A stretch of DNA of 64,000 nt from an uncultured Chthonomonadaceae bacterium (lineage in GTDB: Bacteria; Armatimonadota; Chthonomonadetes; Chthonomonadales; Chthonomonadaceae). Location: the NCBI GenBank assembly GCA_963817895.1, contig CAWFQB010000011.1:64001-128000 (forward strand), read 5' to 3'. The position numbers and the translations under genes are program-made. The notes beneath the pieces were generated by a model that worked only from the letters and a program-made list of their open reading frames with translations, was not told the origin of the DNA and did no database searches. Below, piece by piece: positions 25,887-27,689 of this stretch. The stretch's first letter is position 1; each line of letters opens with the position of its first letter.

Positions 25887-25915
25887 TTGTTAAGGGCGCA
25901 AGACTGTGTTATACT
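25887..25915 (+). promoter_or_regulatory. sigma70-type promoter of the amber-tRNA operon
   Basis: TTGTTA-N17-TATACT with extended TG. Confidence 0.65.
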
Positions 25916-25982: not shown

Positions 25983-26063
25983 ATGTATTAGGGCATCATT
26001 CGCATAATCAGGATCAGGCAAGCGGCGGCTTTTTGTCATTGGGCAAAAAGGCGGCGCTTTTTT
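25983..26063 (+). promoter_or_regulatory. Leader 1: ATG TAT TAG then GIIRIIRIRQ on read-through, running into a terminator-like hairpin (attenuator)
   Basis: Purine-rich GAAGAGAG upstream; TAG at 25989-25991; Ile/Arg codon run. Confidence 0.55.
26020..26063 (+). terminator. Imperfect intrinsic terminator upstream of first operon gene
   Basis: GCGGCGGCTTTTTG / CAAAAAGGCGGCGC stem (two G-G mismatches) followed by a T run. Confidence 0.55.
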
Positions 26064-26112
26064 GCGTTTTTTAGCCCCAACATTCTATATATCAACGGAA
26101 AAAGAGAAGACA

Positions 26113-26451
26113 ATGAGCAAACAGAAATCATCGGGTGAGCCGGTGGTCACCGGCAAAGCGGCCTATATCGCGCGGCTGCGGGCGGGCGAAACCGTCAGTT
26201 TCCGCGAGGGCGGCAACAGCATGACGCCCCGCATTAAATCGCGGCAGAAGTGTACATACAAGCCTGTGATGGCGGCTGAAGACGTGAAGGTAGGCGACGC
26301 CGTATTCTGCAAAGTGGGCGGCAACTACTTCACGCACCTGATTACCGCCCTGCGCGGCGACCAGTACCAGATCAGCAACAATCACGGCCACGTCAACGGC
26401 TGGATTACGCTCAACAGCATCTACGGCAAAGTAGTTGCGATTGAGGATTAG
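26113..26451 (+). CDS. S24/S26-like peptidase domain protein (soluble, Ser-His type)
   Basis: GNSMTP, VGDAVFCKV, FTHLI, NGW.....IYGKV. Confidence 0.72.
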   Translation: MSKQKSSGEPVVTGKAAYIARLRAGETVSFREGGNSMTPRIKSRQKCTYKPVMAAEDVKVGDAVFCKVGGNYFTHLITALRGDQYQISNNHGHVNGWITLNSIYGKVVAIED

Positions 26452-26527
26452 GAGGGTGTTCGGTGTTCGGTATTGGGAAGGGGTGGAACAAAGTAAAATC
26501 GTGTGCTATCAGTAAGTTTGAGATTAC

Positions 26528-26599
26528 GCCCGTGTCGCCATCTGGTGAAGGCAGCCGCCTCTAAAGCGGCCAAGATGGGTTCGATCCCCATCACGGGCA
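26528..26599 (+). tRNA. tRNA with CUA anticodon (amber suppressor; amino-acid identity unclear; CCA not encoded)
   Basis: Acceptor GCCCGTG/CACGGGC + A73; D arm GCC/GGC with GG; anticodon arm GCCGC-CTCTAAA-GCGGC; 4-nt variable loop; T arm ATGGG-TTCGATC-CCCAT. Confidence 0.9.
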
Positions 26600-26640
26600 T
26601 AGTGACGTATCCGAACACCGAACACCGAACACCAAACATC

Positions 26641-26751
26641 GAAAGGAGTTGTCGCCATGTTGTAGCCGCGCTCGCCGCCGTTTGCCTGAAAAGACAGAGA
26701 ACGATGCAAGAAATCTTTGCAGAAAACCTTCTACTTTTTACTTTTCAGGAG
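26641..26751 (+). promoter_or_regulatory. Leader 2: SD AAAGGAG, uORF 26657-26689 M-L-amber-P-R-S-P-P-F-A-stop, stem occluding the next SD
   Basis: CCTGAAAAG (26685-26693) pairs with CTTTTCAGG (26741-26749), overlapping AGGAG. Confidence 0.7.
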
Positions 26752-26762
26752 AACGAACACAA

Positions 26763-27155
26763 ATGAAGACATTGAACAGAACCATGACCGCGCGGTTTTT
26801 CCGCAGCGCGGAAGATTATGACCGTTTGATTGCGCTCTGGAGCGGCGGGATGCGGGACAGGGCAACGCGCCGCCAACTGACTGCCGCGCACCATCTGCTG
26901 TACCTGATTCTGCGTGGCCGCAACTGGCACTCGGCCTTTACACCGGTCACAAACGCCTGTAAACTGGAAAATGGGGGAGTATACAATTGGGGCGCGCGTC
27001 GCGCCGTCCATGCGCTCCATTATGGCAATGCAGAGGATTTGCTGGCTCCGTTTCGGGATATGCTTGCTCCTTCTGCGTTGGTTCTGGCGCGCGAACTGGT
27101 TCCGGCAGACAGTTGGAACGAGGCATTGCAAGGAGGCGAACCCTACCATGCCTGA
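26763..27155 (+). CDS. Hypothetical protein coupled to the Pth2-like gene
   Basis: SD AGGAG; HHLLYLILRGR motif; overlaps next start. Confidence 0.7.
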   Translation: MKTLNRTMTARFFRSAEDYDRLIALWSGGMRDRATRRQLTAAHHLLYLILRGRNWHSAFTPVTNACKLENGGVYNWGARRAVHALHYGNAEDLLAPFRDMLAPSALVLARELVPADSWNEALQGGEPYHA

Positions 27156-27507
27156 ACTGCCGAACGCGCAGCCGAGCGGGCATGTGTATGTGTTCGTCCG
27201 CAGGGATTTGCCGATTGCCGACCAGATGGTACAGGCGGCGCATGTTTGTCTGGAAGCGGGCCAAAGGTTCTGCGTCCCCTGCCATTGCCCGCTTGTGTTG
27301 CTTCAGGTGGCGGATGAACCGGCCTTGCATCGCGCCTTGCAGCATTGCCGCCGATACGACATTGCGACGCACACGTTTACAGAACCGGACGCGACGGAGG
27401 AGTTTCCGCAAACGCCGATGGGCTTGACCGCCGCCTGTACGCCGCCCTTAAATACGGCGCAGCGCAGGCGTATGCGTCCTTTCACGTTATGGCAGCCTCC
27501 GTCGTAA
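27148..27507 (+). CDS. Peptidyl-tRNA hydrolase 2-like protein (phage-type)
   Basis: YVFVRRDL....QMVQAAH, LVLLQV.DE..L, F.EPD, GLTA.C..P, terminal LW; SD AGGAGG. Confidence 0.8.
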   Translation: MPELPNAQPSGHVYVFVRRDLPIADQMVQAAHVCLEAGQRFCVPCHCPLVLLQVADEPALHRALQHCRRYDIATHTFTEPDATEEFPQTPMGLTAACTPPLNTAQRRRMRPFTLWQPPS

Positions 27508-27689
27508 TTGCCATTCGCGTGTATTCGCGTGTATTCGCGGCTAAGTTCATTCCCCTAAACCCCTGTTGAAATTTCAACAGGGGTTTGGCTTGTCAATGGC
27601 GAAATAACCCCACAGGATGAAAACAGACTGCCTCTTTTCCTAAAAGCTGGAGAAGGGGTGGGGTTGAGGGCTATTCAAAGGAGAAAACA

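Follow-up and report, generated by a model that had tools for sequence, protein, structure and literature searches.

The 64-kb stretch of DNA analysed here (the window) carries a cassette which, judging from sequence comparison and RNA modelling, is likely to be a read-through switch gated by a suppressor tRNA in a bacterium that uses the standard genetic code. A tRNA with a CUA anticodon is followed by a short upstream open reading frame (uORF) that is interrupted by an amber codon and encodes, beyond it, the motif R-x-P-P. The RNA behind the motif forms a stem over the Shine-Dalgarno sequence (SD) of the next gene, which we call hyp. The tRNA, the gate, the motif, the geometry of the stem and the match between gate codon and anticodon are established by comparison and folding. 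The parts of the cassette are, in window coordinates:

25887-25915, + strand: candidate sigma-70-like promoter with an extended -10 (consensus match 9/12)
25983-26138, + strand: first amber-gated leader, Met-Tyr-amber (TAG at 25989-25991), whose read-through frame spans the terminator hairpin
26018-26072, + strand: terminator-like hairpin with a U tract (folding z = -3.15), likely an attenuator of the transcript bearing the tRNA
26113-26451, + strand: small S24/S26-peptidase-like ORF, an accessory passenger (weak TIGR02227 match)
26528-26599, + strand: tRNA with a CUA anticodon, predicted amber suppressor (ARAGORN; RF00005, 53.8 bits)
26642-26648, + strand: SD of the uORF (from the sequence)
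26657-26689, + strand: uORF, Met-Leu-amber-Pro-Arg-Ser-Pro-Pro-Phe-Ala-opal (from sequence and conservation), with its ATG at 26657, the amber gate at 26663-26665, RSPP at 26669-26680 and TGA at 26687-26689
26680-26693, + strand: 5' arm of the anti-SD stem, beginning where the second Pro codon ends (from folding)
26705-26721, + strand: inner hairpin (from folding)
26741-26755, + strand: 3' arm, containing the SD of hyp at 26747-26751 (from folding)
26763-27155, + strand: hyp, a 130-residue helical protein of no assigned family, predicted to be controlled by the stem
27148-27507, + strand: Pth2-fold protein (Foldseek matches to Pth2 structures)

In the off state RF1 would terminate the uORF at codon 3, the anti-SD arm would never be reached and the stem would hide the SD, leaving both hyp and the coupled Pth2-fold gene silent. 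In the on state the CUA tRNA of the cassette would outcompete termination at the amber codon, and the ribosome would proceed to RSPP, pause there with the second Pro in the A site, cover the 5' arm and so free the SD. Charging of the tRNA, the read-through, the pause and an antitermination step further upstream are what we infer from this arrangement. The start of the Pth2-fold gene overlaps the stop of hyp by 8 nt, so that in the window this gene is probably gated by translational coupling.

The suppressor tRNA and the genetic code of its host

The tRNA at 26528-26599 is the only tRNA in the window, its 3' end lying 57 nt before the uORF, and it fits RF00005 end to end. Amongst 22 suppressor tRNAs from related loci 95.9% of the stem cells are paired and a compensatory change is seen in 19 of the 21 pairs, both far in excess of shuffled and slid controls. 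On this sequence evidence the suppressor tRNAs of the cassette are maintained as tRNAs, with their stems under structural selection. Many suppressor tRNAs (those of L012, L013, L016, L017, L019, L021 and L022) seem by eye to have A8/G14 and not U8/A14, which could make them weak suppressors. In the window, short tandem heptamer repeats in inverted orientation flank the tRNA at 26458-26472 and 26611-26638; these could pair and enclose the tRNA in the precursor RNA. Additional genes are seen in this region in two phage loci: L011:1937-2723 has a tandem pair of CUA tRNAs and, behind them, a pair of tRNA-Lys genes, and in L010:1220-2209 a gene for PspA/IM30 separates the tRNA from the cassette.

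ARAGORN labels the tRNA of the window 'Pyl', a label resting on the anticodon alone. The anticodon stem of tRNA-Pyl has six pairs; that of the tRNA here has five, within a standard cloverleaf. A pyrrolysine system was rejected, the best match to PylS (TIGR02367) scoring 27.9 bits against a cut-off of 178; as the genome is 81% complete, PylS was graded as not found. We also rejected an amber-recoded code (code 15), since TAG ends 832 of the 3155 long ORFs of the genome (26%) and RF1 is present. The genome also encodes RF2 and Pth1. The frame of the RF2 gene (L044, G000:C3:681443-685018) looks shifted soon after the GGQ motif, through an assembly error or in reality. The same genome has an array of 16 tRNAs (G000:C4:227906-230044) separate from the housekeeping set. 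Likewise outside that set are two small clusters (C3:373423-373740 and C1:603042-603212) whose tRNAs have unusual D loops.

The gated leaders and the stem over the SD of hyp

An earlier note on this DNA had described the SD, ATG, TAG, R-S-P-P codons and TGA of the uORF, and all are present in the sequence. It had further proposed that the end of the uORF pairs perfectly over the downstream SD around an inner hairpin, and this was confirmed: the 9-nt arms at 26685-26693 and 26741-26749 are exact complements, and the stem reaches 26680 and 26755, covering the SD of hyp, which starts at 26763. The stretch 26680-26770 folds with z = -3.18 and was matched in stability by 1 of 200 shuffles, while the folding of the longer stretch 26641-26770 is unremarkable (z = -0.63). 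Genome-wide there are 628 sites at which an SD and an ATG are followed shortly by TAG. R.?PP stands behind the stop in six of them, and R[AGSP]PP is found only at the uORF at 26657.

Opening the SD of hyp is calculated to cost 12.2 kcal/mol without a ribosome, compared with 3.7 +/- 1.9 kcal/mol in shuffles of the spacer, 1 of 300 of which was as high. With a 28-nt ribosome footprint held unpaired in the model, the cost is 10.9 kcal/mol when the amber codon is in the A site and 2.3 kcal/mol when the second Pro is. The sequence of events suggested in the earlier note, in which read-through leads to a pause at RSPP and to release of the SD, is thus supported by folding as well as by the comparison of loci given below. 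The note had named no source for the read-through and had omitted the tRNA; the adjoining tRNA with the matching anticodon would supply one. The TGA at codon 11 sits within the 5' arm in the window, and termination at it could therefore be enough to open the stem even if the ribosome never stalled.

According to a selection cited in PMC10951233, minimal RxPP can stall ribosomes. Passages of PMC12992588 describe RSPP as only partly permissive in the arrest peptides tested there, and a RAPP-like motif alone as insufficient in ApdA and ApdP. For the uORF, whose chain has four residues ahead of the Arg, a stall at RSPP is a predicted pause.

Relatives of hyp number 528 at E <= 0.001. From relatives, GTDB, metagenomes and viral contigs we gathered 42 hyp loci, 30 of them distinct, the other 12 (L002, L004-L007, L009, L018, L023, L030, L034, L035 and L037) being dropped as duplicates or near-duplicates. 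To fit the leader pattern, a locus had to show, 40-130 nt before hyp, a start codon with TAG or TGA soon after it and then [RK]x?PP in the same frame. Such a stop-gated leader, with the anti-SD arm right behind the prolines, is found in 28 of the 30 loci, which are related to one another and the first 24 of which shaped the pattern; the motif picked out in the earlier note is thus a conserved one. As background, the pattern occurs at 13 of 2084 other gene starts of the host genome. All six Chloroflexota loci fetched after the pattern had been formed fit it, with RAPP or RGPP and a CUA tRNA.

The motif reads RAPP in 10 of the 28 loci, RGPP in 8, RSPP in 5, RPP in 3, and RPPP and KSPP in one each; RAPP, RGPP or RSPP is thus found in 23, the pattern also admitting RPP and KSPP. 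In the relatives it is the peptide motif that is preserved, its codons varying synonymously. In 22 of the 28 loci the gate stands at codon 3, and it comes at codon 12 at the latest. Five leaders (L010, L015, L025, L036 and L038) have two ambers in series, as would be expected of a threshold switch. The sequences of the arms vary between loci while their pairing is kept, and in 27 of the 28 loci the modelled cost of opening the SD is lower with the ribosome at the motif than at the stop, the exception being L024, where the stem model is unchanged. The mean cost falls from 11.6 kcal/mol, with the A site five codons before the second Pro, to 4.5 kcal/mol at the second Pro and is flat after that.

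The two loci without the leader, L032 and L033, hold the most distant homologues of hyp and have the gene and a CUA tRNA with no gate. In both a canonical PTH2 gene lies directly upstream of hyp and the CUA tRNA downstream, so that the trio is reordered. L027 and L028 have the gate and no tRNA in the sequence covered. The named hosts are Chloroflexia, Chthonomonadaceae, Abditibacteriaceae and Armatimonas, and the cassette is also found on large viral contigs; the bacterial copies, which lie among host genes, span at least three phyla.

Upstream of the tRNA, the Met-Tyr-amber leader probably antiterminates the transcript bearing the tRNA. In the model the hairpin at 26018-26072 persists when a ribosome occupies the amber codon at 25989-25991, and the frame opened by read-through runs across it. 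If this gate is real, read-through would lead to more transcription of the tRNA itself, a positive feedback. A similar layout, with a Met-x-amber start before a hairpin, was seen by eye and non-systematically in L003 and L014, making three loci in total, and many other loci appear, again by eye, to have a promoter directly before the tRNA. The S24/S26-like ORF that lies between the hairpin and the tRNA matches TIGR02227 with E 0.0036, below the cut-off. The cassette includes it in the window, in L003 and in L026, and the ninth codon of the L026 copy is an in-frame TAG. It was rejected as a core part, as a CUA tRNA is found at 0 of 29 other loci of the ORF in the phylum, and no Met-short-TAG leader was seen at the ORF in the 16 of those 29 loci that were inspected.

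The encoded proteins and the covariation of gate codon and anticodon

The earlier note had referred to the two downstream genes as a Pth gene pair. This holds for one, which encodes the Pth2-fold protein; the other, hyp, falls into no family of Pfam or NCBIfam, and its PHROG matches are weak. The structure model of hyp has a pLDDT of 94, with no PDB match by Foldseek and a best VIA Z of 3.5. Atlas matches to methyltransferases were under 0.9 and this assignment was not adopted. A single weak BFVD match is to a protein of Yersinia phage fHe-Yen9-04 (E 0.11, TM 0.51). No homologue of hyp is found within 2.5 kb of the Pth2-fold gene of that phage, nor does hyp have a tblastn match in GenBank phages.

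The Pth2-fold protein matches human Bit1/Pth2 (1q7s) in Foldseek with an E of 4.7e-6 and a TM of about 0.7, and archaeal Pth2 was also matched; PF01981 scores 13.5 bits, below its cut-off of 23. The catalytic residues of Pth2 are Lys, Asp and Thr. In the protein here invariant Gln26 and Glu79 stand at the Lys and Asp positions, as placed by a weak alignment (E 0.0062), and these replacements make its hydrolase activity uncertain. By modelled fold the product of 27148-27507 is Pth2-like and, with some uncertainty, a putative hydrolase at most (background on Pth is given in parts of PMC11202043). Downstream of the gene there are three 10-nt tandem repeats at about 27513-27542 and, after them, a near-perfect hairpin at 27552-27595 which is probably the terminator of the operon.

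A tRNA with a suppressor anticodon is found on the same strand in 28 of the 30 hyp loci, counted at a relaxed ARAGORN threshold and with the anticodon of L014 read by eye. In all 26 gated hyp loci that have a tRNA the gate matches the anticodon, TAG being paired with CUA in 24 and TGA with UCA in 2 (L008 and L029). Where the Pth2-fold gene is present (25 hyp loci), it has an in-frame TAG of its own near the N-terminus in 16, as counted by reading the output; the gene in the window has none.

Viral Pth2-fold loci extend this comparison. Clustering at 90% identity reduced 62 such loci to 49 clusters, with 13 dropped. Met-short-TAG gates are present in 31 of the 49, of which 24 have a CUA tRNA in the locus and 7 have none; three have Met-short-TGA gates, all with a UCA tRNA in the locus; two show a TAG but no clear ATG, and the remaining 13 were counted as having no gate. 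In the 49 clusters there is no mismatch between gate and anticodon and no TAA gate. In a tree of the 62 Pth2-fold cores, built from few columns, the five opal rows need four changes, which are forced by well-supported branches. On this tree the TGA/UCA combination arose four times independently. No other evidence that the tRNA reads the gate is as strong as this repeated joint change of codon and anticodon.

Of the four cultured phages examined, fHe-Yen9-04, RsoM2USA and Arash have an early amber and RaK2 has none; a CUA tRNA is found only in Arash, in the stretch fetched. Further amber-gated RxPP leaders occur in the phage loci L119, L123 and L128, two of them downstream of the Pth2-fold gene and before other genes. 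Phage locus L100 has an ochre (UUA) tRNA besides.

Possible purpose of the switch and its relation to known systems

UAG is read only by RF1 and UGA only by RF2. The trigger of the switch is probably a shortage of release factor, and we suggest, tentatively, that the cassette is an alarm-and-rescue kit for release-factor failure. Loss or trapping of RF1 or RF2 would raise read-through, more suppressor would then move ribosomes past the stop concerned, and the Pth2-fold protein would clear the peptidyl-tRNA left by failed termination. We favour this purpose because the gate codons are specific to RF1 or RF2, because the feedback and the double stops would suit a threshold, and because failed termination leaves peptidyl-tRNA. 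We found no agent known to inactivate RF1 in these hosts. It is conceivable, and we put this a little more guardedly still, that the cassette belongs to a widespread and so far undescribed type of operon shared by standard-code bacteria and large phages. A nonsense-suppressor tRNA devoted to the task would sense the failure of release factors, early stops placed in leaders and genes would gauge tRNA against release factor, and positive feedback together with double stops would turn the arrangement into a switch. Its outputs, a new subfamily of Pth2-fold proteins and a helical protein lacking a clear structural match, would rescue termination. If so, agents able to inactivate RF1 or RF2, be they toxins, defence systems or antibiotics, would have to be common, and 'orphan' suppressor tRNAs would be explained.

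Four other explanations were weighed against this purpose. The switch might instead be a delay timer from large phages, with the gate reporting the level of mature, charged suppressor, the bacteria carrying a passenger and the status of the release factors being irrelevant. The Atlas clusters nearest to the Pth2-fold protein are 73-89% viral, in keeping with the 62 viral loci, and the cassette is patchy in bacteria, with 3 carriers among 101 relatives, 4 among 401 genomes from the phylum and 8 among 401 from the class around G415. Suppressor tRNAs have moreover been proposed as code switches in recoded phages, in passages of bioRxiv 10.1101/2021.08.26.457843. We nevertheless think a timer unlikely. 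Bacterial copies over at least three phyla keep the tRNA, the gate, the motif and compensated stems, which does not look like decay, and the phage loci show no general recoding, since TAG ends 28 of their 146 long ORFs.

Rather less probable is that the cassette is a negative-feedback homeostat or addiction module, in which the suppressor tRNA is harmful and excess read-through is neutralised by hyp or by the Pth2-fold protein, acting as a deacylase. It would account for the Pth2-fold gene being the most constant partner of the tRNA, for the direct gating of that gene in the 16 hyp loci and in at least 34 of the 49 phage clusters, and for the protein having invariant residues of its own, unlike Pth2. 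In three loci, however, read-through would antiterminate the transcript of the tRNA itself, giving positive and not negative feedback, and L016 and L039 hold hyp and the tRNA without a Pth2-fold match.

That positive loop, together with the double ambers, would suit a bistable switch, as expected if hyp or the Pth2-fold protein inhibited RF1 and slight read-through then locked the cell into amber suppression. This we consider very unlikely. A host-wide amber regulon was not found in this genome, whose only other candidates are two that look repeat-derived, against a background of 45 TGA and 13 TAA matches. Such a switch would have few targets, and 26% of long ORFs end in TAG. The alternative offered in the earlier note, a minigene of the lambda bar type that reports Pth status through drop-off of peptidyl-tRNA without any read-through, has in its favour the gate at codon 3 in 22 of 28 loci and the Pth2-fold gene downstream, but can hardly be right, since it explains neither the motif conserved behind the stop with synonymous changes, where a toxic minigene should have no conserved coding, nor the stem that begins just past the prolines, the gates as late as codon 12 and the four switches of stop and anticodon.

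The cassette has a known relative for each of its parts. Lambda bar minigenes, the erm and cat attenuators and coupling attenuators of the pyrBI type all have a tiny leader ORF in which the position of the ribosome sets the RNA structure; we know of none that takes a suppressor tRNA as its input. There is a close likeness to the RAPP/RGPP arrest peptides (ApdA, ApdP, ApcA, SecM and Bordetella CruR), in which a paused ribosome at R-x-P-P of a uORF activates the next gene, as described in parts of PMC10951233, PMC12992588 and PMC9426467. Here, too, a uORF has a conserved R-x-P-P (28 of 30 loci, by the relaxed pattern) and a ribosome at the pause site would rearrange the RNA ahead of the next gene (27 of 28 loci, as modelled). 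According to the same passages, arrest is the default state of those peptides and is relieved when an N-terminal domain senses a signal, export or copper. The leaders here, by contrast, are about 7-30 codons long, are interrupted by a stop and have neither a shared N-terminal sequence nor a sensor domain, and their motif can be reached only through suppression of the stop.

The programmed frameshift of prfB, by which RF2 regulates itself, is also similar, in that an early in-frame stop reports the level of a release factor (described in part of PMC12421855). It differs in that ribosomes get past the stop by shifting frame (+1) and in that the gene product is RF2 itself, whereas here a cis-encoded tRNA is used and the stop is mostly TAG; a section heading of that paper states that TAG was not found as the premature stop. 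In the code-change modules of recoded phages (a suppressor tRNA, a synthetase and a release factor) the suppressor activates genes that bear stops, according to passages of bioRxiv 10.1101/2021.08.26.457843 and PMC13037316. The cassette differs from these in having no synthetase or release factor, in its standard-code setting and in having one early stop per gene or leader. A synthetic feed-forward loop tightens expression with an amber codon and a co-regulated suppressor tRNA; it is engineered, and the opening of its abstract mentions neither an arrest motif nor an SD-occluding stem (PMC7969014).

No description of a leader gated by a suppressor tRNA was found in the literature searched, which lay mostly outside subscription journals and supplements; the lists of RAPP/RGPP small proteins accompanying PMC12992588 could bear on novelty. 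The parts thus have known relatives in RxPP attenuation, suppressor tRNAs and prfB, and we regard the whole as new, since in that literature we found no system in which a cis-encoded suppressor tRNA regulates leaders and genes in a standard-code host. Suppressor tRNAs of standard-code organisms are usually seen as mutants, are mislabelled as tRNA-Pyl or are left unexplained; those described here look like the input of a switch. That codon and anticodon changed together four times offers a direct and cheap test of the role of orphan suppressor tRNAs, and points to pressure on both RF1 and RF2.

The comparison also exposes a family of gated genes missed by annotation pipelines, and amongst the 28 GenBank phage matches many are without a gene call at the site. 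In Salmonella phage Arash (L142, OQ632216) the only gene call for the amber-gated Pth2-fold gene begins at an internal start, and the tRNA with the CUA anticodon at L142:3798-3872 is labelled tRNA-Phe in GenBank.
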